Shown one piece after another: positions 33,081 through 54,848 of a stretch of 64,000 nucleotides of DNA (its first letter is position 1; each line of letters begins with the position of its first letter). The stretch is taken from the NCBI RefSeq assembly GCF_014202425.1, contig NZ_JACHGT010000021.1, positions 29,884 through 93,883 of the forward strand. The letters are read 5' to 3'. The DNA is from Phytomonospora endophytica (lineage in GTDB: Bacteria; Actinomycetota; Actinomycetes; Mycobacteriales; Micromonosporaceae). Both the position numbers and the translations under genes were made by a program. The notes under the pieces are model-generated. The model was not told the origin of the DNA. It made no database searches and worked only from the letters and a program-made list of their open reading frames with translations.

Positions 33081-33132
33081 GGGTCGCCTGGGTCGCCTGG
33101 GTCGCCTGGGTCGCCTGGGTCGCCTGGGTCGC
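33081..33132. repeat. 9-bp tandem repeat (GGGTCGCCT) x5.8
   Basis: Perfect head-to-tail copies read directly in the sequence. The array ends at the first base of element X. Confidence 0.85.
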
Positions 33133-33262
33133 AAAACGTGAATCGCCCCAGGGGCCTCCCGGCCTCCGCCCTAAATTCGACCGTAGCCCGCCGTGAGGCG
33201 TGGGTGGCGAACGCGAACCGCCTTCCCTGTGGATAACCCACCGGTTATGTAGCCTGCGTGCT
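33131..33262 (+). other. Non-coding element X, copy 1 (about 130 nt); its 3' end carries attL, so the last ~16 nt are phage-derived
   Basis: About 85 % identical to the reverse complement of 59983..60110. Contains TTATCCACA (reverse strand, 33228-33236). The original 3' end GGTTGTGGACAACC is now found at 54811-54824. Confidence 0.5.
33233..33246. repeat. attL core ATAACCCACCGGTT
   Basis: Direct repeat of 54800..54813 (13/14 identical), lying exactly at the two ends of the phage gene block. Confidence 0.55.
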
Positions 33263-33841
33263 TCTGACCAGGTTCGGAGCGATTACGCCCGGTTCTGTGG
33301 CGTCGGTTTCGTACAGAACTATCCAGTTCGTCAAGAGCTGTTGGCGGTCCGGTGCTCCCGTGGGAGCACCCTCACAGTCGCCTAAGGCGTCGTCGGCGGC
33401 GCCTGCGGGTGGGGCGGGCCACTGAATCAGGCCGTCGTTGCCGAGCGAAAGCCCGGTGGGAACGGCGGTGTTGATCGCGAAGGCAACCCAATAGATCGTC
33501 CAGTTGCCGGTACTCGACCCGCGATAGGTCGTGACTTCCATGTTGGTGCGGGTTACCTGCCCGAGCGCAACGGTGTTGTTGTTCGGGGCGGTCGTGTAGC
33601 CGGTGACGAGTCCGACGACGTCGTTTCCGCCGTTGAGCGCGCGCGGGAATGTGAGTGTGCGGGTTTGGTTGCCGGTGGCGAGTTGGTTCACCAGGAACCG
33701 CCCGGCCATGATGTCGGTAGCCATCCCGAACGTGGCGAGCGCCGTTTCGGTGGCTTCGGCGAGTGCCCGAAACTGCGCCGGGCCGTTGGGCGGGTCGGTG
33801 CTCTCGGGGTAGGGCAGGGCGTATACGGGTGTGCTTCCCAT
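33245..33841 (-). CDS. Phage minor tail / hypothetical structural protein
   Basis: ATG 33839-33841 behind GAGGAGGAA. Last gene of the tail module, followed by hairpin GGTGCTCCCACGGGAGCACC. Confidence 0.4.
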   Translation of the reverse strand: MGSTPVYALPYPESTDPPNGPAQFRALAEATETALATFGMATDIMAGRFLVNQLATGNQTRTLTFPRALNGGNDVVGLVTGYTTAPNNNTVALGQVTRTNMEVTTYRGSSTGNWTIYWVAFAINTAVPTGLSLGNDGLIQWPAPPAGAADDALGDCEGAPTGAPDRQQLLTNWIVLYETDATEPGVIAPNLVRSTQAT

Positions 33842-33883
33842 GGCGCTTTCCTCCTCGGCTCTCATGGCGGGTGTGGGGGCGTT

Positions 33884-34663
33884 TTAGGGGGCGGACCAGT
33901 CGAGTTCCACGGCCCCGGATTGGGGGTCGGATGCCAGACCGGCGGCGGCCAGGAATAGCCCGGTGTCGTCGGGGGTGGCCAGCCCGAGCCCGGACACGGC
34001 GCCGTCGGCGAGGGACTGCGCCCATCCGGCCGGAAGGGGCAACCACGCTGCCTCGCCGACGGCGAGCGCACCGACGGCCGTCGGGCCGTCCACGATCGCC
34101 GGGGGCGCGCTCGTCGGCGCGGTCGCGGTGTGGGCGTAGGCGTAGACGGTCACGGGGCCTTGTGAGCCGCCGGGGAGGCGCCGGACCCAGATGCGCCCGG
34201 CACCGACGACGGCACCCGCGAGGGTGCCCGTGATGGCCGTGCCGTACCACCAGGCGCCTTGATTTGATCCGGCGCCGGATGGGTCGGATCCCTGCAACAC
34301 GTCGCGGCGGTCGGTGCGGGCCGAACCGTCGAGGTAGGACCCGGCGGCGGTGGCCGGGAACGTCGCTGTCCCGCTCGTCGGGGTGTCCGGCGGCGGGTTG
34401 GGGCCGGGGTCGGTGGTGGCGCCGAGCTTGCCCAGCGCGTACCACGTCCCGGCGGCGGTGGCGAGGATCAACACGACGTCGCCGACGGCGGGCGTGTAGG
34501 CGGCGAGATGCCCGACGGTGATCTCCCCACCGTCCAGGTTGACCGTGACGGCGCCGCCGTCCACGCCGGTCACGAGCGCGGTTCGCGCTTCTGTCGTTCG
34601 TGGACGGCGCAGGACGTCGGCGAGGTCAAGCGGCATCGCCGTCACCTCCTTCGGTGGGGTCAA
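33884..34663 (-). CDS. Phage minor tail protein (Gly/Ala/Thr-rich)
   Basis: Position in the tail module and composition typical of actinophage minor tail proteins. Confidence 0.4.
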   Translation of the reverse strand: MTPPKEVTAMPLDLADVLRRPRTTEARTALVTGVDGGAVTVNLDGGEITVGHLAAYTPAVGDVVLILATAAGTWYALGKLGATTDPGPNPPPDTPTSGTATFPATAAGSYLDGSARTDRRDVLQGSDPSGAGSNQGAWWYGTAITGTLAGAVVGAGRIWVRRLPGGSQGPVTVYAYAHTATAPTSAPPAIVDGPTAVGALAVGEAAWLPLPAGWAQSLADGAVSGLGLATPDDTGLFLAAAGLASDPQSGAVELDWSAP

Positions 34664-35789
34664 GGACGGTGATTCCGGATTCGAGCGCGCGGACGGTGTA
34701 GACGGCGGCGCCGCCTTCGGCGGTGAGCGGCATGTCGACGCTGACGAGTTGGCCGACGAACCGCAGGCGCGGGGTCGAGACGGTCACCGAGTCGAGTGGT
34801 TCGAGGAACGGGACGGGCACGGCCTCGATCCGGTAGAGCCGCTCGCGGCCCCTGATGAGACTGTCCATCCTGGTCTTGGCGGCGCGCTGCGCTTGCTTCA
34901 CCGACTTGATCAGCGGTGAGCTGTAGAAGGTCGGGACCCTCCCATAGGGACCGTCCCAGCGCGTCGGCGAGTTCGGGGTGACGTCGTAGGCGACGGCCTG
35001 CACGGCGGGCTTGTCGCCGTCGGCCTCGCCGCGCGCGACGACGGCGTTGTAGGCGCCGTCGCGACTGGCTACTTGCGACACTGCGAGCAGACCGCCGGCC
35101 GCGGTGCCCTGGAATGTCCACACGGGATCGGTCGGGGCCACCGGCGTCAAGGTGAGCGCGCCCTCGGGCCCGGCATATGCCTTGGCCTCCAAGGCATCGG
35201 CGAGCGCGGCCACGGCCTCCAACCTGGACTCCTCGTAGACGAGCCCGGCTGGTACCGCTTCGTCGGCGACGTCGAAGGTGGACAGCGGGAGCAGCCCCCG
35301 GCACAGGCGGCGGATCTCTGACAGGCACGTTGCGCCCCTTGGTGGCTTCCCGGCGGCGAGTAGCCGGGAGTCGTCCACAGCCGACATCCGGTCGAGGGCT
35401 TCCACCTCGATCGAGGCGCCGCCGGAGACCCAGGATCCGGCGCGGTTGCGGCGGTATGCCTCTTCGGCGTCGGTCTGCTGAATTCGGAACCAGCCCAGCG
35501 AGACCGTTTCGACGGCGCCGCCGGGGATGCGTACACCGCGCCGAATGTGCAGCTCTCCACCGAACGGGGTGAGCCCGTTCGCGCCGTCGGGGACGAGTTC
35601 GCCGGTCGGGCACGCGATCGTGCACGTGAGGCGGGCGCGGATGTCGTCGTCGGCGTCTTGCTGGACCTGTCCGTCTACAAGTGGCAGCCCGGCGGCGACC
35701 AGGCGCCCGGCGTACCAGAGATCGGCGGTCGTGACGACCTCGTGCGAGGCGGCCAGCGTCGCGGCGAACGCGCCGGAGTGGCCGATCAC
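34626..35789 (-). CDS. Phage tail protein (Tal/tip-like)
   Basis: GTGA overlap with the upstream gene. Sits after the Dit-like gene in canonical order. Confidence 0.45.
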   Translation of the reverse strand: MIGHSGAFAATLAASHEVVTTADLWYAGRLVAAGLPLVDGQVQQDADDDIRARLTCTIACPTGELVPDGANGLTPFGGELHIRRGVRIPGGAVETVSLGWFRIQQTDAEEAYRRNRAGSWVSGGASIEVEALDRMSAVDDSRLLAAGKPPRGATCLSEIRRLCRGLLPLSTFDVADEAVPAGLVYEESRLEAVAALADALEAKAYAGPEGALTLTPVAPTDPVWTFQGTAAGGLLAVSQVASRDGAYNAVVARGEADGDKPAVQAVAYDVTPNSPTRWDGPYGRVPTFYSSPLIKSVKQAQRAAKTRMDSLIRGRERLYRIEAVPVPFLEPLDSVTVSTPRLRFVGQLVSVDMPLTAEGGAAVYTVRALESGITVLDPTEGGDGDAA

Positions 35790-36598
35790 GCCGCACCGCC
35801 GGGGGCCGGGTCGCGCATGACGTCGAGCCACGTTGCCTTACCGGCGATGAGGTCGGCCCAGGTGTCCCAGTAGGCCACGACGTCGGCCCACACATAGGGG
35901 AAGGTCAGCAGGGACGGCGAGGGCGCGTCCACGGCCGTGAGCGGCAGTGTCCACACCCGACGCGGGTCGTCGCCGGTCTTCGGCGCCTGCCGCGTCTCCT
36001 CCACGTCGCCGACGAGCCAGTACCGCGCGGGCCACCCCCACGAGGGGTCCGGGCGGATCAGCAGCACCGGCACGGCACACAGCGCGCGCAGCGCGGCGGC
36101 GGCGGAGTCGGTCACGGTGCGGGCGACCATTTCAGACTCGGGCTCTTGACGTACCCCGATTACGGCAATCGCGGTCGCCGACAGCATCGGGCGCAGCACG
36201 GCCGCCGACCGGCCGTAGGCCATGCCCTCCCAGTCCACGACCTGCCAGCGTTGCGCGCTCTCGGGGTCGGTGGGGTCCTGCACCCACGGGCACCCGTCAC
36301 TGTCGACGGTGACCGGCTCGCTCGTCGGTCCCGGCGTCGAGGCGTTCCCGTCGGTGTCGTACCCGACGGCGAAGTACTCCACGGGCTGTCCAAACGGGAC
36401 CTCGTAGTCCACGACGAGCGCCGGGCCGGAGACCTCGATGCGCCACCCGCCCCGGACCGGCACGGTGCCCGAGGAGTCTTGCCGGTAGAGGGTGATCGTG
36501 GCGTTGTCGGCGCCGGGCGTGACGGTGATCTCCACGCGCGGGCACGGATCGGCGTCTTCGTAGGGGATGCAGGTGGGCGCGGCCGGTGGCGTGGTCAT
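35786..36598 (-). CDS. Phage distal tail protein (Dit)-like
   Basis: Immediately downstream of the tape measure gene and of the expected size (270 aa). Confidence 0.4.
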   Translation of the reverse strand: MTTPPAAPTCIPYEDADPCPRVEITVTPGADNATITLYRQDSSGTVPVRGGWRIEVSGPALVVDYEVPFGQPVEYFAVGYDTDGNASTPGPTSEPVTVDSDGCPWVQDPTDPESAQRWQVVDWEGMAYGRSAAVLRPMLSATAIAVIGVRQEPESEMVARTVTDSAAAALRALCAVPVLLIRPDPSWGWPARYWLVGDVEETRQAPKTGDDPRRVWTLPLTAVDAPSPSLLTFPYVWADVVAYWDTWADLIAGKATWLDVMRDPAPGGAA

Positions 36599-38160
36599 CG
36601 CGTGCTCCGTCCGGGCCGGGCCTGGATACGGCGGGCGAGCCCGAGGTTTTCGGCACGGATCTCGGTCTTGACCATGCCGGTCAACTCACGGTCTCCGATG
36701 TAGACGCGCACGACCGGCACCCGCAGCGCGGCGAGGTTCGTCGGCGACGTCGCCGACGGCGCGGCGCGAGCGGCGGTAAGCCCGGCCGGGGTGACGGCCA
36801 TGCGCAGTGTCGGGGCCGACTGCGAGGAGAAGATGTCACCGAACCAGCCGCCGACGTCCTTAAGCCAGTCGGGAACGGAGATGCGACCGAACCAGTCGAT
36901 CACGCTTTGAATCTTGCCGATCAGGTCGTCGAAGAATCCAGTGATGCCGGAGACCACGCCGTTGATCACGTCGAAGATCGCCGTCCACACCTTGTCGACC
37001 ATGTCGGCGCACCACTCAAACGCCTCCACGACGGCATCCACAGTGGTCTCGACGGCGACACCGACGGCGCGGAACACAGCCTGAACGATCTTGCGGAAGG
37101 TCTCCGACCGCTGGTAGGCGATGACCACGGCGGCGACCAGGGCGACGATGGCCAGGATGATGAGGTTGATCGGGCTGGCGGCTTGGGCGGCGTTGAGAAG
37201 CCACTGAGCAGCCGTCCACGCGATCGTCGCCACCCGGATCACACCGAGGACGACGGCGTAGGCCGTGAGGGCGGCGACGATGCCGCCGATGATCGGCAGG
37301 AGCACTTGCGCCGCCGTCGAGGTGCCGGTGAGCCACTCCACGAAGGACTGAACCCCGTCGGCGGTGGCGAGTACGGCGGGGATGAGGTTGTCTCCGATGA
37401 ACGACGTCACGGCCGTCAAGGCCGGTAGCATCCGTTCGCCGAGTTCGGCCGATGCGTTGGCGAACGCGGCGGTCGCCTGCTGCTGTGCTCCGGCGGCGGT
37501 GTCGGACTCCCTGGCGAAGGCGCCTTGCGCGTCGGCGGTCTGTTCGGCGAGCAGTGCGAGCGTGGCTTGTGCGGTCGCGTTGCGCTGCGCGGCATCGGTG
37601 GACGTGTCGAGCCCCAACGCGGCGATGCGCGCGTTGACGGCGGCCTGTGAGATCGACACGCCGTACTGTTCGATCGGGTCGCGCTCTCCACGTAGGAGTG
37701 ACGACAAGGCTTCCACGGCTTGCGAGGTGGGGCCGCCGAACTGTGCGGCGAGGTCGGCGCCGATGGTGACGAGCTGGTCAGTTTGCCCGGCGAGCGCGTC
37801 GAGCGGAACGCCCATGTTCTTCAACTGCGAACCGAGGACGGCCGACAGTTGCCCGTACTGGGCCCGGGACAGGCCGACGGCTTCGGCGGCGGCGTCGGCG
37901 AAGCCTCGCACCTGTCCGGCGGCGCCCTTGAAAACCGAGTCCACCGCGCCCATGGCCTGCTGAGCGTCGGAGGCGGCCGTCAAGGCGTCCTGCCCGAACT
38001 GCAACAGACCGTCCACAGCGAACGCCCCGGCGGCCACGGACGCCACGTTGCGGATGGTGCGCCCCAGGCCGTTGATCGCGCGGTCGCTGGTGTTGGTCGC
38101 GTTCACGAAGGACTGCGACTTGCCGATGATGTTGACGACCAGCGTTGCGGGCTTTCCCAC
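36595..38160 (-). CDS. Phage tail tape measure protein (521 aa)
   Basis: Ala/Gln-rich helical N-terminal half, central TM-like hydrophobic segments, and position after the chaperone genes. Confidence 0.7.
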   Translation of the reverse strand: MGKPATLVVNIIGKSQSFVNATNTSDRAINGLGRTIRNVASVAAGAFAVDGLLQFGQDALTAASDAQQAMGAVDSVFKGAAGQVRGFADAAAEAVGLSRAQYGQLSAVLGSQLKNMGVPLDALAGQTDQLVTIGADLAAQFGGPTSQAVEALSSLLRGERDPIEQYGVSISQAAVNARIAALGLDTSTDAAQRNATAQATLALLAEQTADAQGAFARESDTAAGAQQQATAAFANASAELGERMLPALTAVTSFIGDNLIPAVLATADGVQSFVEWLTGTSTAAQVLLPIIGGIVAALTAYAVVLGVIRVATIAWTAAQWLLNAAQAASPINLIILAIVALVAAVVIAYQRSETFRKIVQAVFRAVGVAVETTVDAVVEAFEWCADMVDKVWTAIFDVINGVVSGITGFFDDLIGKIQSVIDWFGRISVPDWLKDVGGWFGDIFSSQSAPTLRMAVTPAGLTAARAAPSATSPTNLAALRVPVVRVYIGDRELTGMVKTEIRAENLGLARRIQARPGRSTR

Positions 38161-38173
38161 GGCGCACCTCCTC

Positions 38174-38491
38174 TCATCCCTTGCGGCGGGCGCGCTTGTG
38201 CGCCTCGTTCACCTCGTCCAGGACGGCGACCATCGCGCGCGCCTCACCAACGGTCAGGTCTCGCAGATCGACCGGGGAGCACTGGAAGGCGTAGGCCAGA
38301 CGCGCGCGGTTCATCACGCCGCCGCCGGGGTCCGTGTAGGGTCCGGCGGCTCCGCGTCCTCGTCGGCGTCCTCGCCGTCGGCGTCGTCCTCGTCGGACAG
38401 TGCGGCGACCTTCTGCCATCCGGCCATGGACCCGTTGTTGTAGATGTCGGTCAGCGACACCGGCTGTCCGGCGCGGGTCCGTGCCGACCAC
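38174..38491 (-). CDS. Putative -1 frameshift extension of tail assembly chaperone (GT-like)
   Basis: The ORF is in the -1 frame relative to the G-like gene and overlaps its last ~180 nt, matching the conserved G/GT arrangement. No canonical slippery heptamer was identified. Confidence 0.35.
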   Translation of the reverse strand: MVGTDPRRTAGVADRHLQQRVHGRMAEGRRTVRRGRRRRRGRRRGRGAAGPYTDPGGGVMNRARLAYAFQCSPVDLRDLTVGEARAMVAVLDEVNEAHKRARRKG

Positions 38492-38703
38492 TCCAGGACG
38501 GCGAGCCGCTTGCCGGGCTTGAGGTTCGCGCCGAACAGGTCGACGTTGGTCACGCGCTTGATGCGGTCCACTTCTGCGTACGACAGCTGGTCGAGTGACG
38601 GAACCTCGATGGGCCCGTACCTGTCCTGAATGGATTCCGTGGCGCCGGAGCCGGTCTCGGCCGGCACCGCATTGCGGGGGCTGGATCCCTTACGTGTAGC
38701 CAT
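38314..38703 (-). CDS. Tail assembly chaperone (G-like)
   Basis: Small acidic protein just upstream of the TMP. Its 3' part overlaps the -1-frame ORF 38174..38491. Confidence 0.5.
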   Translation of the reverse strand: MATRKGSSPRNAVPAETGSGATESIQDRYGPIEVPSLDQLSYAEVDRIKRVTNVDLFGANLKPGKRLAVLEWSARTRAGQPVSLTDIYNNGSMAGWQKVAALSDEDDADGEDADEDAEPPDPTRTPAAA

Positions 38704-38706
38704 TTC

Positions 38707-39093
38707 TCACACTCCCCTTACGGTGTCGCAGATGGACTGCATGTCTCGGAAAAACGCGGCCAGCCACAGCGCCTCGGTCGCGCGGGCGGCGTCGGACAGG
38801 AACGGTTGCGCGGCGATGCCCCGGCGCGGCCATCCCCAGTGGATCGGCGCGGCGTAGGGGACCCGGGCGCCTCCGGCGCGCACCACGGCCGCACCAACGG
38901 CGCGGTTGCCGCGCACGGACGCGGCGAGCCGTCCCGTGCGGCGGGGCGCGGCGGCGGCCCCGGCGCGAGCGACGATCGCGGCGGCGGCGGCGTTGGCGTC
39001 CTTGAGGTCGGCGGCATCGGCCCCCGCCTTACGCAAGGTGCGCCGTAGCTGCGCGGCGCCGTCCACGTCGATCGTGAACGCCTCGCGGGCCAT
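38707..39093 (-). CDS. HK97 gp10-like tail-completion family protein
   Basis: Product MAREAFTIDVDGAAQLRRTLRKAG…PRRTGRLAASV…VPYAAPIHWGWP resembles the HK97 gp10 family. Confidence 0.45.
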   Translation of the reverse strand: MAREAFTIDVDGAAQLRRTLRKAGADAADLKDANAAAAAIVARAGAAAAPRRTGRLAASVRGNRAVGAAVVRAGGARVPYAAPIHWGWPRRGIAAQPFLSDAARATEALWLAAFFRDMQSICDTVRGV

Positions 39094-39776
39094 CACCCGC
39101 CCCCGCCGCCGGTGTAGGGCAGGGTCACAGACTTTGTGGCGGAGGCTCCACTCTGGCCGGTGACCTTGACGGTGAACGTGTTCGGCTCGGTGTAGAGGTG
39201 GCTGGCGGTTCCCGCGTCGGGGGTGTCGGTGGTGTCGTCGCCTTTGTCGCGGGCGTCGCCGAAGGCGATCGCGGCCGGGCCGCCGGAGACCACGGTGACC
39301 TTGACGGTCATGCGCGTGGTGTCGGTGGTGTCCTCCTCGGCGGTGAACACCGGGGCGGCGGGGAAGGCCCGGTCTACCTCCCCGATCACCGGAAGCTCCA
39401 GATCGGACGTGAGCTGTGCGGCCACGTCGCCGCCGATGTCGCCAAGACGGCATTGCACGCGCCCGGTGTAGGTCGGGCCGCCGTCGCTGTTGGGCGTCCA
39501 GGTGAAGGCCACGACCTCGGTTTCGTTGTCCCACAGGAAGTTGATGAACCCGTTGGGGTCGTCGAAGTCCTGTACAGCGGTGACCTTGAGCGTGCGGCCC
39601 GTCTTGAGCGTCGGGGCGTCGGAGTCGCCACAAAGGACCTCCAAGACTTCGCCGTCCTCCTCGTACTCCGTCGAGAGAGTGACGTTGGTGGGCTGGCACG
39701 AGAAGTCCACGGCGATCCCGCCGTCGGGGGTCAAGGTGAGCTTGCCCTTCTTGAGGCGGCTCTTGGTGATCGTCAT
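39093..39776 (-). CDS. Putative major tail protein with C-terminal Ig-like domain
   Basis: A 227-aa beta-rich protein with a Thr/Asp-rich C-terminal Ig-like repeat, in the major-tail position. Confidence 0.5.
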   Translation of the reverse strand: MTITKSRLKKGKLTLTPDGGIAVDFSCQPTNVTLSTEYEEDGEVLEVLCGDSDAPTLKTGRTLKVTAVQDFDDPNGFINFLWDNETEVVAFTWTPNSDGGPTYTGRVQCRLGDIGGDVAAQLTSDLELPVIGEVDRAFPAAPVFTAEEDTTDTTRMTVKVTVVSGGPAAIAFGDARDKGDDTTDTPDAGTASHLYTEPNTFTVKVTGQSGASATKSVTLPYTGGGGG

Positions 39777-39785
39777 CGGTTGCTC

Positions 39786-40127
39786 CTATGTGGTGACCTG
39801 CACGCGCACGCACGGCAGGAGGTTTCCGGCCGGGTCGGTCCCGGCGAGCTGGACGGGTTCGATGAGGTCGACTTGGCCGACCTCGCCGCACGCGGCGGCC
39901 AGCGCCGGGATAACGGGGTCCTCGGCGTCGACGACGGTTCCGTGATCGGCGCCTGCCATGACCACCCACACGTGCCAGACGACGGCGAGCGAACATCCGG
40001 TGAGGACGGTCGCCGACACCCACGACGGCCACCCGTCCCCGGCCTGCGGCGTGTCGGGCATGACCCGATACCCCGTGCAACCGGCCACCGTGGACACAGC
40101 GGCAGCGAGGTCTTCGCGGATGCCCAT
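39786..40127 (-). CDS. Head-tail adaptor-type small protein
   Basis: A 113-aa ORF with coding bias, between the connector and tail genes. Confidence 0.4.
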   Translation of the reverse strand: MGIREDLAAAVSTVAGCTGYRVMPDTPQAGDGWPSWVSATVLTGCSLAVVWHVWVVMAGADHGTVVDAEDPVIPALAAACGEVGQVDLIEPVQLAGTDPAGNLLPCVRVQVTT

Positions 40128-40129
40128 AA

Positions 40130-40447
40130 GCCCATCACCGCGATCCGCAAAGGGCCCTCTAGCCGCTCGATCTCGGCGTCATAGGCCGGGAGCCGGGTGG
40201 GTCCGTACTCATCGGACGGACCGGTCAGCCCCAGCGGGACCCCGCGCGCGGCGACCTCCCGGGCGCAGCGCCGCAGCAGCGCCGCGTAGGCGTCGGGCGG
40301 GAGGGTCCCGTCTGCGGGGAGTCGGCAGGCGCGAGACTGCGCGGCCGTCTCGGCGTCCAGGACGACCCCAAGCTCGGCGTCGTCCATTGAGGACGAGGCG
40401 AGCTTGAGCCACGCGCGGACCTGCTCTACGGTGGGATAAGCCGCCAT
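40130..40447 (-). CDS. gp6-like head-tail connector protein (3' end unclear)
   Basis: The N-terminal ~105 aa of ORF 39773..40528 (MAAYPTVEQVRAWLKL…EIERLEGPLRIA) look like gp6-family. The frame then continues as low-complexity text over the next gene. Confidence 0.4.
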
Positions 40448-40615
40448 CACGTCGCCCCCGAGTGTGATGGCGGCGCCGTGCGCCCCGGCACCGGCAGGCG
40501 CCCCGGCGCGGGCGGGGAGAACCCGCACCGGGGACGACCCGCAGCGCGACCGCGACCGCCCACACCGGACGGCACGTCACGACGCGAAACCAGCAGCGCC
40601 ACAGAAACCCGGCCA

Positions 40616-41896
40616 TCACTTCCCGGCCTTCTGGGTCTCGACGGGCGGTACGACGGCGGGCGCGATCTTGCAGAAGCCCTTGGGCTCCAGGAATCCCGAC
40701 GCGGCATAGCCGCCGTAGGCGACCTCCACACCGAGGATGGACGGTTCGATGGCCTGGATCAGTCCCAACTGGACCTCGTAGTACTCGTACAGGCTCTTGG
40801 ATCCGACGATGACGGTCTTCTCCGGCAGCAGCGGCGCCACGATGCGCGGCGCGTTGAACACGTCGCCGGAGAAGCTCGTGATGTCCTGCGTTCCGCCGTT
40901 GCCGTCGGCGCGGGGCGGGAGCATCAGCCGGGCGGTGTCACAGACGGCGCCCATGATCGCCCACATGTCCACCGAGCACCAGATGGTGTCGGGCATGCGC
41001 TGACCACCGGCGTACGCCTTGGCGGCGGCGGAGTAGAGCGCCGTCGCCCACCCGGCGAGATCGTTGGTGGCCACGGTGACCGACTGCGTGATCCCGGTCG
41101 CGAACGCGGTAGCGGTCGCCGCTTCGGTGGCCAGGCCGTACTGGTCGGCGAGGTCGGTCGTGAGGATGTTCCACGCGCCGGGGTCGGTCCAGTCGATGTC
41201 CTGCCGGGACACGTTGACCACGCCGCCGTAGGTGGCCTTGGGGAACTCCAGGCTCTCCACCTTGAGCGCCTGCGAAGCAAGCTCGGTCTTCTCCGCCGTC
41301 TGGACGCCCACCTTCGTGTGCTGGGTGACGATCGGACGGGAGAACGTCTTGCCGGGGATGTTCCCCAAGGGACGGACACCAAGGCTGGTGATGAGTGGGC
41401 GGCGCGCGTCGATGATGTTGATGACCGGCCCGACGATCGGCGTCGGGAGGATGCCGGGCGTCTCGGCCGTGGTCATCTTCGCCACGGCGCGAGTCAGGCG
41501 CTCGGCGGCGGCCGGATCGCGGGCGATGCCGATCTTCGGCGCACCGAAGGAACGCACCCGGTCGAGGAGCAGCGCACCGGGCGAGTCGTAGACCGGACCG
41601 TCCTCAGCGGACGGCGCGGCCCGCTCGGTGACCCGTGCGCCGCCGCCGACGGCGCGCGTGGTGGCCGTGTCGGCGCTGGCGCGCAGGGTCTCGAACTCGC
41701 GCAGCGGCTTGAGCTGCGCGTCGATCGCGGCGATGCGTTCACGGGCGGCGACTAGGTTGCCCTGCTCGGCGTCGACGAGGTCGCGCCCGCCGTCGTCTTC
41801 CACATGGGACAGGAGGTTGTCGACGAACTCGACCTGCGCTTCGCGCTGCTCTTCCAGGCGCGAGATGACCGGGTTGGGCGTGCAGTTGGTGACCAT
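40616..41896 (-). CDS. HK97-fold major capsid protein
   Basis: A 426-aa protein with an N-terminal delta/coiled-coil segment and HK97-like core. It follows the prohead protease gene. Confidence 0.75.
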   Translation of the reverse strand: MVTNCTPNPVISRLEEQREAQVEFVDNLLSHVEDDGGRDLVDAEQGNLVAARERIAAIDAQLKPLREFETLRASADTATTRAVGGGARVTERAAPSAEDGPVYDSPGALLLDRVRSFGAPKIGIARDPAAAERLTRAVAKMTTAETPGILPTPIVGPVINIIDARRPLITSLGVRPLGNIPGKTFSRPIVTQHTKVGVQTAEKTELASQALKVESLEFPKATYGGVVNVSRQDIDWTDPGAWNILTTDLADQYGLATEAATATAFATGITQSVTVATNDLAGWATALYSAAAKAYAGGQRMPDTIWCSVDMWAIMGAVCDTARLMLPPRADGNGGTQDITSFSGDVFNAPRIVAPLLPEKTVIVGSKSLYEYYEVQLGLIQAIEPSILGVEVAYGGYAASGFLEPKGFCKIAPAVVPPVETQKAGK

Positions 41897-42033
41897 GAGA
41901 AGGCTCCAATGCGGACAGACGGATGAAGGTCTGTTCGGGTGCCTTCCGGGTGACCGCCAGGTGGTGCCCGCAAGGGTCCGGCGTGGACGGTCGGCGCAGC
42001 GAGGCGGCGCGAACTACTAAGGGCGATAGTAGA

Positions 42034-42681
42034 TCAGGTGGTGAGGTTCGCGCGCCAGTTCTGCCACTCCGCCAGTGCCGGGCGCGGCGCCGGGGCGGGG
42101 CCGGTGCGTTGTCCGCCGACGGGGCGCCCTGCGGTGCGCACGAGGGTGACTCCGGCCCCGGCGTAGGCCGGGACGGCGCACAGCGAGGTCTCCAGTAGAC
42201 GGCCCTCGTGATGGACGACCCGCGCGAGCGAGTCTCGCGTGGCGGGGTCGACGGTGGAGCGCCCGGCCATCGGCGCGAACCCCACCGACAGGCCGGTGAG
42301 CAGGCCCTCGCGCGCCAGCCGCCCGGCCTCCTGCGCACGCGGCGAGGAGTCGAGTTCCCACGCCCCGTACAGGCCGTCCAGCTCTTCACGCCACGCGATG
42401 GCGCGCCCGATGGGGAATGCGTCGTGGTCGTGCCACAGCATCAGCGGCAGCGCGCGGGCCGCCTCCTTCGTGGACTTGCGGAACGCGCCGGGCGCGATCG
42501 TCTCGAAGTACGTGCCGTACTCGTCGCTGACCTGCTCGGCCACGCCGTAGGGAACGGCGCGGCCTTCCAGGACGACCGGCGCGTCGCGCTCTTCGCGGAC
42601 GGTCTCCAGTGGAGCCATGCGAATCCGCGGGGAGCCGTAGACGCGCAGCTCCGGCGCGAACGTGGTGGGTGCGCTCATGAC
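42034..42681 (-). CDS. HK97-family prohead protease
   Basis: Product MSAPTTFAPELRVYGSPRIRMAPLETVREERDAPVVLEGRAVPYGV… matches the S78/U35 protease pattern. Lies between the portal and capsid genes. Confidence 0.7.
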   Translation of the reverse strand, partial: VMSAPTTFAPELRVYGSPRIRMAPLETVREERDAPVVLEGRAVPYGVAEQVSDEYGTYFETIAPGAFRKSTKEAARALPLMLWHDHDAFPIGRAIAWREELDGLYGAWELDSSPRAQEAGRLAREGLLTGLSVGFAPMAGRSTVDPATRDSLARVVHHEGRLLETSLCAVPAYAGAGVTLVRTAGRPVGGQRTGPAPAPRPALAEWQNWRANLTT

Positions 42682-43853
42682 TGCTCGGTCTCCTCGATCT
42701 GTGCTCCGCCAACGGTTTCGGTCTCCGGCGGCGGCGTGTCGGATGTGGACGGTGCGGCATTCGCCGGCACCGGGGACAGTCCCATGTAGGCACGCGCCTC
42801 CTCGGTGGTCATCAGCCCGCCCGAGACGGCCTCGGTGAGGGTCGTGACGGTGGTCGACATGTCGTCGGCGAGGAGCTGTTGACGGTCGAGCCGGAGCGAG
42901 TGTCCACGCGGGACGAGCTGTGCGGTCCACGTCTGCTCGAAATCGGTCATGATCGGCTCCAGCGTGGTCCGCAGGAGGTTGAGGTACATCGGCCCCGGGG
43001 ACCGGTAGGTCAAGGACTCCGAGGGCGCGCCCAGCCAGTACGGATCGAGAGAGAACGCGTTGGCGATGTCGACGAGCGTCGCCGACCGCGCGGCGGTGAG
43101 TTCGGCGTCCGAAGGGGACCACGACAACGGGAGGATCTGCGTACCGGCGGGGAACACCCCGGGCTCGCGGCGCGGCCCGCCGAACAGGTCGGTCCACCGC
43201 TGCTTAGCGGCAGTCGCCTCCTCTTCGGACAGACGCGGGTTCGGCGCGATCACCGCCACCGACGGCACGGCGCCGTCGGCGAGCGCCGACGCCTCGTACT
43301 CCTCCTCTGCGATCGCCCGGGACAGGGTGCGCATGTGCTGCTCCACGACGCCCACACCCCGCGCGGGACACCACGAGTCGGCGCCGCGCTGCACGTGCAC
43401 GATGTCGGCGGCCGGGATCTCCTTGCCGCGAGCCCAGTAGCGCGGCCGGGCGTAGTCCTCCTGTGCGCACTCGATCGCCACCCATGCAGCGGGCAGCCAC
43501 CGCAGGGCGGCGGGGTAGCCGTAGAAGTCGCGGGCGGAGATGTAGGCCACCGCGTTGCCGTGCATGAGGTAGTCGTCGACGAGCTGCCCGAACAGCCACG
43601 CGAACGAGCGCGCCGGGTCCGGCTGCTCCAGGAACCGCGTGCGCGGCAGCGGCTGCGTTCCCTTGTAGTCGTCCAAGGTGGTCTGCCGGATCATCCCCGT
43701 GATGAGCAGCAGTGCACGGGCCACACCCGGCACCGTGCGCGCCCGGTCGGCGTCCATCCACGGCAGCACATCCGGCCAGACGACGCGGTTGTACGGCGAC
43801 AGTCCACCCCGGATCGGCGCGGCGGCGCCCGAAGAGCTTTCCATGATCCACAC
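42675..43853 (-). CDS. Phage portal protein (HK97 family)
   Basis: A 392-aa protein directly downstream of terminase, with an acidic C-terminus. Confidence 0.7.
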   Translation of the reverse strand: MWIMESSSGAAAPIRGGLSPYNRVVWPDVLPWMDADRARTVPGVARALLLITGMIRQTTLDDYKGTQPLPRTRFLEQPDPARSFAWLFGQLVDDYLMHGNAVAYISARDFYGYPAALRWLPAAWVAIECAQEDYARPRYWARGKEIPAADIVHVQRGADSWCPARGVGVVEQHMRTLSRAIAEEEYEASALADGAVPSVAVIAPNPRLSEEEATAAKQRWTDLFGGPRREPGVFPAGTQILPLSWSPSDAELTAARSATLVDIANAFSLDPYWLGAPSESLTYRSPGPMYLNLLRTTLEPIMTDFEQTWTAQLVPRGHSLRLDRQQLLADDMSTTVTTLTEAVSGGLMTTEEARAYMGLSPVPANAAPSTSDTPPPETETVGGAQIEETEQS

Positions 43854-43867
43854 CGTACCGCGATCTA

Positions 43868-45586
43868 CTAGGCGGCATAGTAGGAAGCATGACGAACACG
43901 CCCACGGCTCCGCATCCGCAGCGCTCCGCCGACAAGCACAAGGCGCGCCAGGCCCTCACGCTCGCGATGACCGGCCTGTCCGCTGCGACGGTCCTTGACG
44001 TCCTCATTGGGCACGAGCTGGCGCGGCGTGGGCTCGAACTCGGCGAGGGCGCACACCTCGAACTCGTCTCGATGGTCGCCGGAGTTGTCGACGACGAGTT
44101 GCGCACGCTTGAACTCTCCGCCCGCGCGCCGCTCGCGGCGGCGGCGCGCGCGTCCTAACAGGATCGCGAACTCTGGCAGCTCGGCCGGTGCGTTCTCCAC
44201 GGCCCATGCGGCGAGGGTGACGGCCACGAGCGGCGCGATGTCTCCGGCGCTGCCCCGGCGTCCCCATGCCCATCCGTCTCCGACGGAGCGCTTCGCGGCG
44301 ACCTCTGCGGCGGCGTCGAGCGCCGGGTGAGCAGCGAGGCGCACCCCGCCGTCGCGCATTCCGGCGAGGAGTCCGGCACACGCACGGGTGTACTCCGTTG
44401 CGGACGTCTCGTGCAGGATCTCGGCGAGCCCGTCATGCCGCCGGACTTCGTCGGTCACGTGCGCGATCGGTGAGCGCGAGTCGGCGACCGCCCACCGTGG
44501 ACGCCACCGCCCGGCGAGTTCGAGGAGGCGCGGCACCACCCACGCCGTGCCCTCCCGGCGGTCGGCGACCTCGGCGACCAGGCGCCCGGAATCGTCGCGC
44601 CAGCCGATACCGATCGTGGCCGACGACCCGTCCACCGGACCGTCCCATGTGAGCACCGGCCCGCCGGGTTCGGGCTGGTCGGGTTCGCGTTCGCGGGCGG
44701 CCTCCCACAACTCGGCGGGGATGGCGAGTTCGGCGGTCTGTGTCCAGCGGTTGCCGTAGGCGCGCGCGAACTCGCCGGGCGGGAGCAGCTCGGCGGCCGA
44801 CGCGATCGCGTCGGGGCGCAGCGTGTAGCCGCGCGCGGGGTGGTTCTGATACACGGTCTCGACGTCGGTTGCGGCTCCGTCCGGAAGGGACCATTCGAAG
44901 TACGCCACTGTGGACCGGCGGGTCCCCGCCGGCCCCGGGTCCGCGGTGGCGTCCCGTCCCTTGTCGACGAACTCGCGCAGCCACGCACTCGTTGCGGTGC
45001 CAGCGGTCGAGACGATCCACAGTTGAGCGTCGGTCGTCGTCTGCGTCGGGATGATCGCCTGCGCCAGCTCCGCGCCGCGCACCGCGTCGAAGGCCCACGC
45101 CTCGTCCACCGACACGAGGTGCGTCGTCTTCCCGTGCAGCGCCTCGGGACCCGGTGAGAACGGGCGCAATGTGGACGCCAGGGCCGTGTATTTCAGCTCT
45201 TCAGAGCCGTTGGACATGCGCGAGGTGATCAGCGTCGAGAGTGGAGAGGAGTCCACGGCGTCGACGTGCTCAAGCCAGAGGTCGCGGGCGTCGGCGCGGG
45301 TCTGCGCGGTCATCCACACCCGGCGGCGGCGCCCCGTCAGGCATCGGTGCGCCGACAGCGCCCCGAGAAGCAGCGATTTACCCGCCTGTCGCGGCACCGT
45401 GACCACCACGACCCGGTACGCCCACTGGCCGGTGGGCGTGATCTCCAGGGCCGTGTCACAAACCTGCCGCTGCCACGGCATGAACGGCGCCCCGAGCGCC
45501 GTCGACACCTTCGCGACCTTCCCGCCGAAGGTCAGCCGGGACGGGTCACGGGCGGTGGCGTAACGCGGCGGGACCGGGCACAGCAT
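43868..45586 (-). CDS. Terminase large subunit
   Basis: Walker A-like VTVPRQAGKS, an ATPase plus nuclease two-domain organisation, and its position. Start codon uncertain. Confidence 0.7.
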   Translation of the reverse strand: MLCPVPPRYATARDPSRLTFGGKVAKVSTALGAPFMPWQRQVCDTALEITPTGQWAYRVVVVTVPRQAGKSLLLGALSAHRCLTGRRRRVWMTAQTRADARDLWLEHVDAVDSSPLSTLITSRMSNGSEELKYTALASTLRPFSPGPEALHGKTTHLVSVDEAWAFDAVRGAELAQAIIPTQTTTDAQLWIVSTAGTATSAWLREFVDKGRDATADPGPAGTRRSTVAYFEWSLPDGAATDVETVYQNHPARGYTLRPDAIASAAELLPPGEFARAYGNRWTQTAELAIPAELWEAAREREPDQPEPGGPVLTWDGPVDGSSATIGIGWRDDSGRLVAEVADRREGTAWVVPRLLELAGRWRPRWAVADSRSPIAHVTDEVRRHDGLAEILHETSATEYTRACAGLLAGMRDGGVRLAAHPALDAAAEVAAKRSVGDGWAWGRRGSAGDIAPLVAVTLAAWAVENAPAELPEFAILLGRARRRRERRAGGEFKRAQLVVDNSGDHRDEFEVCALAEFEPTPRQLVPNEDVKDRRSGQAGHREREGLARLVLVGGALRMRSRGRVRHASYYAA

Positions 45587-45914
45587 CCGGCTTCCCCAGA
45601 TCCTCCAACAACTCCGTCAACCGGTCCGGCGCCGACGCACCCCGCGCGGCCGGAGTCAGCCCGAGATCGGCGAGCGTGGCGCGCAACTCGGCGGCCAGCT
45701 TCGCCGCCGCCCACCGGTCGTCATCCAGACAGGCCGCGTCGAGCAGCCGCGCCAGCGTCCGCGCGGTCGCCGCAAGCGGTCCATCCGCGACGGTCTGAAT
45801 CGTCTTCGCTCGCTGCCCTGCTGTGATCGCCGCGCCGACGGCGCGCTCAGTTCGGCCCGCCGGACGCTGCTTGAGCCCGGGGAGCGCGTCGCGCTGCGCC
45901 GACTTCTTCGCCAT
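45546..45914 (-). CDS. Putative terminase small subunit
   Basis: A 122-aa basic/helical protein immediately upstream of the terL gene. Confidence 0.35.
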   Translation of the reverse strand: MAKKSAQRDALPGLKQRPAGRTERAVGAAITAGQRAKTIQTVADGPLAATARTLARLLDAACLDDDRWAAAKLAAELRATLADLGLTPAARGASAPDRLTELLEDLGKPDAVPGPAALRHRP

Positions 45915-45993
45915 GCCGACAGCGTCTCATGCCAACATGCGCATACCTGCATGTTTGCTCGAGGTCTGGTCGACATAGGACGGCCGGGTCTGG

Positions 45994-46224
45994 CTATCCG
46001 TCCCGGTCGTCTTCGTCGTCGGGTTCTGCCCACACCAGGCCGATGTCCTCGCCGTCCGGTCCGAACTCGCGGACAGTGGCCCACCCGGGCCGTTCGTCGG
46101 GCGGGAGAAGCCCCAGGGTCTTGACGTGCTCGGTCAGCTCGCGCGTGCCCATGGTTTCGCTGAGCGCCTTGAGTTCGGCGTGTAGTGCCTCGTCGGTGGT
46201 GACCGGTGTCCCGTCAAGACTCAC
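45994..46224 (-). CDS. Small acidic protein, candidate immunity partner of upstream deaminase-like gene
   Basis: A 76-aa product whose start overlaps the stop of the 46214 gene by 11 nt. Confidence 0.3.
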   Translation of the reverse strand: MSLDGTPVTTDEALHAELKALSETMGTRELTEHVKTLGLLPPDERPGWATVREFGPDGEDIGLVWAEPDDEDDRDG

Positions 46225-47044
46225 TGCCGCGCTCCCGTTCGATCGCTTCCCCGGTGCCCGGGTAGATCCACACGCGGGTGCTTCCCCGCTTCGTCACCTC
46301 GTGAACGTACAGCGTCTTTCCTTCTGGGATGAGCGCGGACAGGTTCGGGTCGCACCCGTCGGGGTAGTTGCACGGCTTCATGTTGATGTACACGACGGCC
46401 TTGGTCATGTTCTCGTCCTGGCGCAGGCGGGCGGCGGCGTGCGCCTCGATGTGGCGACGCATCCGGGGGTAGGACCGCCACGGGTCCACAATGTCCTTCC
46501 CGTCTCCGGCCGGGCCGTCGTCGTCGGCTTCGTGGACCGGCCCCAGCGGGCGGCCCTCGCCGTCGTAGACGCGGCCGACGGCGATCCGGCGGCCGTTGGC
46601 GTTGCGCTTGCCGACGTGCGGCTTGATTTCCGAGACGGCCTCCGGATGAGACGCCAGCGGCCGGAACCCTTGCAGCACAGGCGTTCTCGGCTCCGGCGTC
46701 CTTTCGGCCGGCTGCGGCCCGGTGTCTACGGTGGACGGCACCCCCGAATCCACAATGGCGGCGTCGGCGTAGATCTGGCGCAGGTACTCGGTGAACGTCT
46801 CCCCGGCGCCGACAGAGCCCACGTCGGCGCGCTCCAGGACTTCCCCCACGGTCTCCAGCCGGGCCAGTGACGCCGAGACCCGGTCGTTGCCCGCGCCCTC
46901 GGTCGCGTCGGTCAGTTCGCCGCGCGCCTGGCTGTACTTCTCCCGGGCGCCGCGTAGTAAACGCTGCGCCTCTGACAGCAGCTCAAGTGCGCGCCGTGCT
47001 CCGTTCTGGAATTCCTCGAAAGGCCCTGTCACGCGGGCAATCAT
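46214..47044 (-). CDS. Two-domain protein: N-terminal helical (WXG100/LXG-like) region + C-terminal deaminase-fold domain (HxE…PCx5C), putative nucleic-acid deaminase toxin
   Basis: ATG 47042-47044. The C-terminus …YPRMRRHIEAHAAARLRQDENMTKAVVYINMKPCNYPDGCDPN… has the zinc-deaminase catalytic signature, H-x-E and then PC-x5-C about 23 residues later. Confidence 0.5.
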   Translation of the reverse strand: MIARVTGPFEEFQNGARRALELLSEAQRLLRGAREKYSQARGELTDATEGAGNDRVSASLARLETVGEVLERADVGSVGAGETFTEYLRQIYADAAIVDSGVPSTVDTGPQPAERTPEPRTPVLQGFRPLASHPEAVSEIKPHVGKRNANGRRIAVGRVYDGEGRPLGPVHEADDDGPAGDGKDIVDPWRSYPRMRRHIEAHAAARLRQDENMTKAVVYINMKPCNYPDGCDPNLSALIPEGKTLYVHEVTKRGSTRVWIYPGTGEAIERERGSES

Positions 47045-47099
47045 GCAGGACGGCGCGCGTCCCCGGCAGGCCGCGCGCCGTTTCCTCACTGTGGAAGGT

Positions 47100-47321
47100 C
47101 TACACCGGTCGTTCCTCTTCGCCGCGCAGCACCGCGCGCGGGTTCACACCCGCCTGCGCGAGCCGCCGGGTCGCCTCGTTGCGCTTCTCGCACGGCCAGC
47201 CCCCGCAACCGGCCGTGCACCTCCTCGAATCGGGGTCGGACGCGTCATACCACCTGCTTCGGTGCTCGCCCCAGATCTCGTACCACTCGGCGGAACTCTT
47301 GCCGCCGAATGTCGTCGTCAT
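47100..47321 (-). CDS. Small Cys-containing phage protein (73 aa)
   Basis: ATGA overlap with the upstream gene. Product MTTTFGGKSSAEWYEIW…CTAGCGGWPC…. Confidence 0.4.
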   Translation of the reverse strand: MTTTFGGKSSAEWYEIWGEHRSRWYDASDPDSRRCTAGCGGWPCEKRNEATRRLAQAGVNPRAVLRGEEERPV

Positions 47322-47491
47322 GCCGGTGCCTTGCGTTCGTCCACAAGGGGGTCCACGCCGAGTTTGAGCATCGCGTCGCGGACGTCGGCGCGCCAGCGAC
47401 AGGGGTACGACGAGGCGCTGCATGAGCACCGGCCGCCCTTGATCCGCTGGTGTTTCTGGTATTCGTCCCAGAGGGTTTCGATGTCGCTCAT
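47318..47491 (-). CDS. Small phage protein (57 aa, below ORF-track cutoff as an independent start)
   Basis: ATGA overlaps at both ends. Product MSDIETLWDEYQKHQRIKGGRCSCSASSYPC…. Confidence 0.4.
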   Translation of the reverse strand: MSDIETLWDEYQKHQRIKGGRCSCSASSYPCRWRADVRDAMLKLGVDPLVDERKAPA

Positions 47492-47880
47492 GACGGCGGC
47501 GCCTCCGGCTCGCGCCAGCGGGACGGCGTGACGTTGAGGTCCAGCCGGGTGTTGTCGACCAGCCAGTACGAGACCGTCACCGGCCGGAAGGCCGTCAGCC
47601 TGTCCCGGAAGTCCTCGATGGACGTCGTGAACCGCGACCAGGCCCCGGGTTCCTTGATCTGCGGGCTGACGGCGTTGACTTCGGTCTCCAGCCACGCAAC
47701 GGCGTCATCGGCGGTGGCGCACGTCTTCGCGCGAAGCTCCCTCGGCTTGTTCAGCCACTCCGATGTGATCAGCGGCGGGAGGTTCGTCAACGGGTTGCGG
47801 CGGTCGGCGTCGGTGGCCTTGTTGAGCACGTCGCCGTGTCCGCGCCAGCGGTGGCAGATCCATTGGTCCTCGATGGTCAT
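47488..47880 (-). CDS. Hypothetical phage protein (130 aa)
   Basis: Coding bias. First gene of a translationally coupled trio. Confidence 0.4.
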   Translation of the reverse strand: MTIEDQWICHRWRGHGDVLNKATDADRRNPLTNLPPLITSEWLNKPRELRAKTCATADDAVAWLETEVNAVSPQIKEPGAWSRFTTSIEDFRDRLTAFRPVTVSYWLVDNTRLDLNVTPSRWREPEAPPS

Positions 47881-47967
47881 GGCATCCCCTGTGTGTGGTG
47901 GTGGAAGGCCCCGGCGGCTCGGAGGGGCGCCGCCGGGGCCGGTGTTGCGATCGGGGCGGGAAGGGGC

Positions 47968-48195
47968 CTACAGGCCCTGATAGCTCTGCACGAACGCGTC
48001 CAGCTCTTCGGCGCTGAACCGCAGTTCGGGGCCGTCGGGGTTCTTCGTGTCGCGCAGGGCGTAACCGCCGCCGGTGATCGGCGCGTACTCCACACAGGAG
48101 TCCTGCGTCCCGGGGTCGGACTGGTCACCGGTGTTGCCGCCGCAGGCGCGGACGTAGCCGCCGGACAGGTCACGGCTGTACAGATCGCTGCTCAT
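47968..48195 (-). CDS. DUF397 domain protein
   Basis: DUF397 signature …YVRACGGN…CVEYA…DTKNPDGPELRFSAEELDAFV…. Confidence 0.7.
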   Translation of the reverse strand: MSSDLYSRDLSGGYVRACGGNTGDQSDPGTQDSCVEYAPITGGGYALRDTKNPDGPELRFSAEELDAFVQSYQGL

Positions 48196-48788: not shown

Positions 48789-48807
48789 TTGTCCCACCAC
48801 GGGACAA
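48789..48807. promoter_or_regulatory. Palindromic operator candidate TTGTCCC-N5-GGGACAA upstream of XRE gene
   Basis: Perfect 7-bp inverted repeat about 70 bp upstream of the 48878 start, in a 680-bp divergent intergenic region. Confidence 0.4.
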
Positions 48808-48877
48808 GCAAGATGGGGAGACGACTCCCCCACGCCAAGGGTTCTCATGTCGCGCAGTGATGCGGCATCCTGTGCTG

Positions 48878-49881: not shown

Positions 49882-49892
49882 CCGAGCATCTG

Positions 49893-49920
49893 AAGAGCCC
49901 CCGCGCTCGCGCGGGGGCTC
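49893..49920. terminator. Bidirectional hairpin AGAGCCCCCGCGC-TC-GCGCGGGGGCTCT
   Basis: Perfect 13-bp inverted repeat between convergent genes. Confidence 0.6.
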
Positions 49921-54813: not shown

Positions 54814-54848
54814 GTGGACAACCTGCCCGCCCGAGCGAGGAGCCCCCG

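Follow-up and report, generated by a model that had tools for sequence, protein, structure and literature searches.

A prophage of Phytomonospora endophytica lies between the two DnaA-type boxes of a dispersed, probably promoter-like DNA repeat

A 64,000-nucleotide stretch of the Phytomonospora endophytica genome (contig NZ_JACHGT010000021.1, positions 29,884 to 93,883; ~70% G+C; hereafter the window) holds a prophage whose attachment (att) site lies in a short element, termed X. What kind of element did the phage integrate into, and was the interrupted end rebuilt? An earlier note on this DNA took X for a discrete unit whose 3' end the phage had reconstituted, and offered a small RNA, a leader or a protein-binding module as its nature. 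The last of the three is the option that appears to fit the evidence. With a probability of roughly 0.6, X is a DNA-level operator or promoter-like cassette, and the phage integrates between its two DnaA-type boxes. The observations concern the anatomy of X, its repeat family, the att sites, a fixed promoter geometry and the set of genes that share it.

Element X and the attachment sites

Two copies of X, X1 at attL and the inverted copy X2, lie in the window (Table 1). Pairwise alignment of X1 (33131-33246, plus strand) with 59983-60115 on the minus strand gave 103/118 identical columns (87%), in agreement with the ~85% noted before. The coordinates first proposed for the element, 33131-33262, hold at the start and not at the end, where the last 16 nt are phage DNA. 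A profile of the X family matched X1 (33151-33249, E=1.6e-21), X2 (59981-60089, E=4e-26) and, as a third match, the severed end at attR (54800-54826, profile positions 83-109); no further match was found by nhmmer in the rest of the window. Full-length matches at E<=2e-18 occur at 12 distinct places, two in the window and ten in relatives. X is non-coding and ~105-130 bp long. Counted from box 1, homology between copies (70-87% identity) extends from -77 to -103 through +27 to +42, and in pairwise comparisons it ends where box 2 ends. Because the homology is sharply bounded and stops at box 2, X is a discrete dispersed repeat with the double box as one of its ends. A coding reading of the reverse strand ('MGGP...') was rejected, as neither the ATG nor the frame is conserved; G+C at third codon positions is ~64% by eye in the X2 read-through frame.

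The last 27 nt of X read TGTGGAYAAC-N3-CCGGT-TGTGGAYAA, a direct-repeat pair of boxes with an 18-bp period (C-TGTGGAYAA-C, N8, TGTGGAYAA-C). Read on the opposite strand, either 9-mer is TTATCCACA or TTGTCCACA. The former is the published high-affinity DnaA box of E. coli and B. subtilis and the latter that of S. coelicolor and M. tuberculosis (PMC4285127 Table 1). This high-affinity 9-mer is present in X1 as box 1, at attR as box 2 and twice in X2, which accounts for all four TTRTCCACA 9-mers in the window, more than chance given an expectation of ~0.09 per strand. The body of X carries the conserved blocks GGGGCCnCCC, CCnCCTCCCAC, TTCTGACnGTAG and CGCCAGGCGTGG. In every copy aligned an invariant G-A-C-n-G-T-A (TACnGTC on the other strand) stands 42 nt from the boxes. 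On the TTRTCCACA strand TACnGTC is followed by a Shine-Dalgarno (SD)-like GGGAGG, with an ATG in some copies only. The conserved, function-like features are read on the strand opposite to the orientation in which the earlier note had described X.

The attL and attR cores are identical at 13/14 positions. Their single mismatch, at position 6, suggests that strand exchange lay inside CACCGGTT. The attB site runs from the inner edge of box 1 across the spacer and takes in the first T of box 2. Directly after the attL core ATGTAGCC (33247-33254) stands where host box 2 was. Directly after the attR core GTGGACAACC (54814-54823) returns, identical to the end of X2 (59984-59993, reverse complement), so that the replacement reported at attL and the exact match at attR are both confirmed. 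Phytomonospora sp. NPDC050363, a sister species with a 92% identical DUF3686 protein, has a gap of 356 bp between the SPFH and DUF3686 genes and no prophage in it. Its empty-site junction, ...CCCTGTGGACAACCCCCCGGTTGTGGACAACCTGCCCGCCCGAGCGAGGAGCC...ATG, equals the left side of attL joined to the right side of attR. The earlier note would have given up its view had X not been a conserved unit in related genomes or had their site lacked the GTGGACAACC end; X is such a unit in relatives, and the relative's site carries GTGGACAACC.

Rebuilding of the X end by the phage was not borne out. The phage flank TTATGTAGC agrees with the lost box TTGTGGACA at 5/9 positions and is not a box. By the X profile the phage arm has no X homology past the 14-bp core, and box 2 has merely moved to attR. 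A three-way alignment hinted at an X-like body in the phage attR arm, that is, at rebuilding on that side; the X profile matches the core and box 2 only. Integration splits the pair: the body and box 1 are left at attL, box 2 is carried to attR, 21.5 kb away and directly before the DUF3686 gene, and no part is reconstituted.

An 11/12 inverted repeat (54768-54779 and 33261-33272) brackets the core in the reconstructed attP, and its halves may be arm or accessory sites. The attB and attP cores both form imperfect dyads of the type ATAAC...GTTRT (attB GATAAC-CCACCGG-TTGTG; attP CATAAC-GCACCGG-TTATG). This would be the usual layout of core-type tyrosine-integrase sites. A search of 5.8 billion proteins at E<=1e-20 returned no relative of the integrase other than the protein itself. 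None was found in IMG/VR, and INPHARED gave a single weak match, 28.8% identical and covering 37% of the protein. The attP sequence was not found in the viral contigs searched.

Does the target represent an RNA gene, as it does for many tyrosine integrases? If X were a small RNA gene or leader, its 3' end would serve as attB and be restored by the phage, as with tRNA and tmRNA genes. X is indeed discrete and conserved, ~110-130 nt long and sharply delimited; one end of it serves as attB, and X1 lies just upstream of a gene. The earlier note was right that the phage sits in the end of a conserved, non-coding unit that is no tRNA: ARAGORN finds only a tRNA-Thr in the window and none at X, X is sharply bounded in relatives, and there is no tmRNA. 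The small-RNA and leader options gained no support from any scan applied to them. Rfam searches with X1 and X2 gave nothing at the gathering thresholds and only chance matches at E<=10. Folding z-scores of +0.65 and -1.46 fall within the shuffled distribution on both strands. RNAalifold on 12 X copies from four species gave -9.3 kcal/mol with a covariation term of ~0 and one compensatory pair. In that orientation, neither a sigma-70-type promoter nor an intrinsic terminator was detected around X2 or the sister site. Downstream and convergent intergenic positions are common among X copies; the 3' end stays unrestored, and no X homology was seen in the phage arm. Taken together, these results make an RNA function of X very improbable. 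If X acts at all, it would act as double-stranded DNA and not as RNA.

The arrangement resembles that of phages and integrative and conjugative elements that target tRNA or tmRNA genes in that a tyrosine integrase lies by attR, the core is short and the target is the end of a discrete unit that does not code for protein. It differs in its target, which is no RNA gene, and in an attP that has the 14-bp core but no copy of the end of X, so that the element is split. The sole tRNA gene of the window, tRNA-Thr (TGT) at 61458-61531 on the minus strand, was passed over by the prophage as a target. REP13E12 of M. tuberculosis is a ~1.4-kb repeat with an open reading frame (ORF). According to the passage on it in PMC9317374, which cites Bibb & Hatfull 2002, the phiRv1 prophage-like element resides in REP13E12 and uses a serine recombinase. 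phiRv1 is the nearest precedent, with attB in a dispersed chromosomal repeat and several sites per genome. Here, unlike phiRv1, the enzyme is a tyrosine recombinase and the repeat is non-coding, ~110 bp long and ends in DnaA boxes. In the sister genome 7/16 double boxes are within one mismatch of the attB core, so the phage target is multi-copy. A repeat as target gives the host many near-identical attB sites. The window shows a temperate phage whose attB is a short dispersed non-coding repeat instead of a tRNA gene, which opens many alternative landing sites to it; the insertion seen here leaves one box before a gene for a DNA-repair-type ATPase.

The double box in other actinomycetes

The 27-mer pattern was scanned in one genome per species with the spacer fixed as CCGGT, and metagenomes were scanned with a free 8-nt spacer; counts from both scans are lower bounds. 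Among the matches listed, the 27-mer occurs at more than 112 places in Streptomyces, Lentzea, Crossiella, Dactylosporangium, Solwaraspora, Tomitella, Stackebrandtia, Actinorhabdospora and Phytomonospora. At least 16 double boxes are present in the sister Phytomonospora genome, and an X body accompanies about half of these. X bodies are also present in Stackebrandtia soli and Actinorhabdospora filicis, so that the family spans Phytomonospora, Actinorhabdospora and Stackebrandtia. Outside these genera the box pair stands without an X body in conserved intergenic regions, and the motif is kept across orders while its flanks diverge. The spacer is variable among the metagenome matches listed. Those from low-GC contigs are oriC-type clusters of DnaA boxes, two of them beside dnaA, and those from high-GC contigs have the same box-to-start geometry as the genomes. 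Over 53 contexts the extended box consensus is G-TTRTCCACA-G (C-TGTGGAYAA-C on the other strand).

The orientation of the box pair to genes seemed unfixed until the flank was read on the TTRTCCACA strand. Of 61 non-redundant contexts, 22 have an ATG 48-53 nt past the proximal box; the remaining 6-nt bins contain 0-9 each, and 3 were counted in the opposite direction. A -10-like YAnnnT hexamer at +36 to +41, with a start codon 5-8 nt further on, is present in 20 of them. In a set of 53 non-redundant contexts that includes metagenomes the ATG offset is 50-53 nt in 43, and no -35 consensus was observed across them. These distances define a promoter class in this analysis: double box, 36-41 nt, -10 element, 5-8 nt, leaderless ATG. 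The pair stands 47-56 nt upstream of a mostly leaderless ATG across Streptomyces, Lentzea, Phytomonospora and high-GC metagenome contigs (for example loci L050 5648-5674, L055 4953-4979, L026, and L011 2793 and 5644).

The genes headed by the double box recur. The most frequent are an M23 peptidase gene divergent from rpsB (17 contexts), yraN/UPF0102 followed by comM and dprA (16), and comEA followed by comEC (10). They are joined by proS (4), a gene for an RcpC/SAF protein (3-4) and DUF4192 (2). Genes for an SSB paralogue, RecA (recA), an FtsK/FHA protein, DUF6099 and an OmpR-type regulator are also headed by the pair. Pfam assignments support the set (SLBB+HHH_3, UPF0102, Peptidase_M23, RcpC, SSB, Mg_chelatase, DNA_processg_A, Competence+Lactamase_B). 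The double box looks like an undescribed operator of a DNA-uptake and DNA-processing regulon. To our knowledge, most of these genera have yet to be shown to transform naturally. Recent papers on Micrococcus luteus describe the control of competence in Actinomycetota as largely unknown, and no regulator is known (PMC8467076; PMC12849477). The architecture, found across several actinomycete orders, ties perfect DnaA boxes to core natural-transformation genes. A defined operator makes competence regulation in this phylum directly testable, and it would suggest why most actinomycetes carry com genes though transformation is rarely observed.

Known competence operators, namely CRP-S/Sxy, the ComK box and the ComX cin-box, are alike in that one upstream motif heads comEA/comEC, dprA, comM and ssb/recA-type genes. 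They are unlike it in motif sequence, in architecture (here a direct repeat at about -55 and -74) and in phylum. By the shared boxes and -10-like element, X would be a copy of this actinomycete promoter type that has spread around the genome, with most copies at gene 3' ends.

Candidate binders and the weighing of explanations

The boxes are perfect consensus, which makes DnaA the obvious candidate binder, and another protein with overlapping specificity could take its place. The 11-mer G-TTATCCACA-G is that of E. coli oriC R1 and R4, as checked on the once-per-genome fragment between mnmG and mioC. From sequence we infer that DnaA or another protein would bind X, that X may be transcribed or may titrate its binder, and that the pair has a regulatory meaning.

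The boxes could instead be the operator, carried by the X copies, of a dedicated actinobacterial factor, for example a competence-type regulator, and not of DnaA. The rigid geometry to the -10 element and the transcription start site would suit such a factor, as would the coherent DNA-uptake and DNA-processing gene set, the fixed 18-bp spacing with its conserved flanking G, and the few extra-oriC sites of mycobacterial DnaA (PMC7738170). The gene of an OmpR-type response regulator itself bears the pair (L096, L188). Against a dedicated factor, the 9-mer and 11-mer are exactly the high-affinity DnaA consensus, including its single tolerated R/Y position, no candidate factor was identified and known motifs do not fit. 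Because the boxes are exactly DnaA consensus, DnaA should bind them whatever else does. We regard a dedicated factor as rather unlikely. At the OmpR-family loci the ATG lies only ~42 nt past the double box, about one helical turn closer than in the main class, and an autoregulated OmpR-family regulator is a possible box-binding factor.

Several known motifs were compared with the double box and rejected. The WhiA motif GACAC does not tolerate the T variant, and the ECF56 motif CGATGAGTT-N14-GGTC is unrelated. The CRP motif TGTGA-N6-TCACA is an inverted repeat; the boxes are direct repeats. The SigR-type GGAAT-N18-GTT fits some Streptomyces copies only and not X, and the RecA-NDp/PafBC motif has TTGTC alone in common and a different spacing. 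A literature search with 8- to 10-mers of the element matched only primers.

If DnaA is the binder, the wider reading would be as follows. The box pair (TTRTCCACA, N9, TTRTCCACA; centred near -56 and -74) would be a DnaA-controlled operator of a conserved actinomycete DNA-uptake and DNA-processing regulon, amplified together with a minimal promoter as X in Phytomonospora-Stackebrandtia and adopted by a temperate phage as a multi-copy attB, each insertion splitting one operator. We offer this tentatively and hold it somewhat doubtful as a whole. Members of such a regulon would be comEA-comEC, yraN-comM-dprA, the ssb paralogue, recA in some taxa, the M23 peptidase gene, DUF4192 and DUF6099. If true, DnaA control would couple competence-type functions to replication status.

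DnaA boxes outside oriC are found at B. subtilis sda and other members of its DnaA regulon and at E. coli datA and DARS. Further cases are P. aeruginosa gidA (PMC13438810) and M. tuberculosis Rv0010c-Rv0011c (PMC7738170). In these cases too, consensus boxes lie outside oriC, upstream of promoters or in intergenic modules. The double box is unlike them in being a fixed pair with an 18-bp period, 36-41 nt from a -10 element, before a recurring set of mostly leaderless genes centred on DNA uptake and processing, and amplified as a dispersed repeat in one lineage. Fixed-pair geometry, DNA-uptake gene set and repeat amplification are not described for the known DnaA-box cases.

The dispersed pairs, X included, might instead be mainly titration or inactivation sites, datA-like sinks that tune initiation and are not promoters. 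Perfect high-affinity paired boxes would suit this role, and at least 16 of them are present in the sister genome. According to a passage in PMC12371093, titration of DnaA by chromosomal boxes is reported in E. coli. Titration has no need of the strict -10 and ATG distances at gene-linked sites, and no clustering near an origin was observed in the sequence examined. Nor is X part of an oriC- or dnaA-linked cluster: each element has two boxes, and dnaA is absent from the window and from every high-GC locus examined. A sink as the main role of the pairs seems improbable.

X might also be selfish DNA similar to a miniature inverted-repeat transposable element (MITE), with the double box as a recombinase or transposase site of no host function. 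X is short, non-coding and multi-copy, prefers 3' intergenic positions, has sharp bounds, and differs in presence and copy number between sister species (X2 is absent from the sister species); moreover, the phage integrase is a site-specific recombinase that recognises the site. X lacks terminal inverted repeats, its ends being GGGGCC... and ...TGTGGAYAAC, and the alignments contain no target-site duplications. The double box without an X body is kept at orthologous promoters across several orders, which indicates host function, and it was not found in 2.9 million viral contigs. We consider a selfish element without host function quite unlikely. A related idea, that X1 and X2 bound a transposon as its terminal inverted repeats, with the DUF3686 gene as cargo, was rejected, as the sister species has two direct copies upstream of that gene and none downstream. 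REP/BIME and ERIC repeats (bound by IHF and gyrase) are similarly short, non-coding, multi-copy, enriched at gene 3' ends and sites for a host protein. X is unlike them in having no palindromic hairpin core, in its direct-repeat DnaA boxes and -10-like element, and in numbering tens of copies, not hundreds.

A number of points weigh against X as an operator or promoter-like cassette with DnaA-type boxes. Orthologous loci in related species account for part of the recurrence of the gene set. We know of no DnaA arrangement with an 18-bp period. The spacing in X, 42 nt, is 1-6 nt longer than the 36-41 nt at gene-linked promoters. Neither the ATG that follows the SD-like motif in some copies nor the frame is conserved, and there is no leaderless start. 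Most X copies are pointed at the 3' end of a neighbour gene that converges on them, and many may be inert. X1 and both sister copies point at the 3' end of the SPFH gene and would not drive a downstream gene. X2 is directed towards a 43-aa ORF and a DUF7010 gene, the latter with its own conserved upstream sequence in the sister species. DnaA of M. tuberculosis and M. smegmatis occupies five regions only, none at com genes (PMC7738170). This last objection is tempered by the observation that mycobacteria are not among the double-box matches listed.

Features of the locus and minor observations

Table 1. Positions of element X, its boxes, the att sites, the prophage and neighbouring genes in the window
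Feature	Position	Strand	Basis
X1, attL copy: body, box 1 and att core; box 2 taken off by the phage	33131..33246	+	alignment, nhmmer
-10-like TACGGT of X1, at 42 nt from box 1; counterpart of the family's invariant TACnGT	33180..33185	-	alignment columns
Box 1 of X1, TGTGGATAA (minus strand TTATCCACA), consensus DnaA box	33228..33236	+	PMC4285127 Table 1 consensus
attL core ATAACCCACCGGTT	33233..33246		
Prophage, ~21.5 kb	33247..54799		PHROGs; missing from sister species locus
Phage-side CTTCTGACCAGG, inverted repeat (11/12) of 54768-54779	33261..33272		read from sequence
Tape measure	36595-38160		PHROGs
Major head	40616-41896		PHROGs
Portal	42675-43853		PHROGs
Terminase (large)	43868-45586		PHROGs
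HNH endonuclease	51458-52333		PHROGs
Tyrosine integrase, 411 aa; start ~150 nt from attR	53415..54650	-	PF00589, phrog_1
Phage-side CCTGGTCAGAGG, partner of 33261-33272	54768..54779		read from sequence
attR core ATAACGCACCGGTT; one mismatch to attL, position 6	54800..54813		
Host box 2, TGTGGACAA(CC), cut off from X1, 27 nt upstream of DUF3686 ATG	54813..54823	+	sequence; nhmmer match 54800-54826
DUF3686/AAA 'DNA repair ATPase' gene, 1660 aa, between X1 and inverted X2	54849..59831	+	Pfam PF12458, PF25472, AAA domains
X2, intact inverted repeat copy	59983..60110	-	alignment, nhmmer
X2 intact double box TTGTCCACA-ACCGGCGGG-TTATCCACA	59986..60012	+	
X2 -10-like TACGGT, 42 nt past proximal box; towards 43-aa ORF and DUF7010 gene	60055..60060	+	
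43-aa ORF	60164-60295		gene call
DUF7010 gene	60385-60903		gene call; Pfam sub-threshold, 24.7 bits (gathering cut-off 27)

The genes around the prophage form a conserved pair, a 691-aa SPFH/Band-7 protein (30963-33038) followed by the 1660-aa protein with DUF3686, DUF7902 and AAA domains (54849-59831). The latter is 100% identical to the protein of P. endophytica, whose genus NCBI assigns to Micromonosporaceae. The pair is widespread in actinomycetes (6771 proteins at E<=1e-30), and in Phytomonospora X elements, here with the prophage, are wedged between the two genes. The two Phytomonospora species differ in how many X copies they carry and where. Upstream of the DUF3686 gene the sister species bears a tandem pair in direct orientation and P. 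endophytica a single copy; downstream of it the sister species has none, and in P. endophytica an inverted copy lies inside ~495 extra bp. This segment (59832-60326), from the DUF3686 stop codon to a conserved GCCATGATCACGTACGATCGC, is missing in the sister species and holds two hairpins, X2 and the called 43-aa ORF (60164-60295). Just past X2, GGCCGTAGAGGCGCCAGGAGCGCC resembles part of the X body in the opposite orientation. Actinorhabdospora has no X between its SPFH and DUF3686 genes, which are separated by only 87 bp with a TTTGTGCCC...TATTCGT stretch.

A perfect 9-bp tandem repeat, GGGTCGCCT, is present in five to six copies at 33081-33132, between a terminator-like hairpin after the SPFH gene (33044-33072) and X1, and has no counterpart in the sister species. 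An msiK RNA cis-regulatory element (RF01747) was found at 27212-27269 on the minus strand (59.5 bits).

Box arrays of other kinds were observed in Stackebrandtia. A 2.9-kb contig of S. soli (L080 2019-2190, 2778-2804) carries six more CCTGTGGATAAC boxes, spaced 12 to 66 bp apart, with 21 bp occurring twice. This array lies ~600 bp from an X-like copy and flanks an Ala/Arg/Glu-rich ORF; it could belong to a mobile element as its origin-like or iteron region. In S. albiflava (L081 6639-6670) a second array, TGTGGACAAC..TGTGGACAAG..TGTGGACGAC, changes from a 17-bp to a 14-bp period and is separated by 130 bp from a canonical 18-bp pair, which shows that the single box is the repeating unit.

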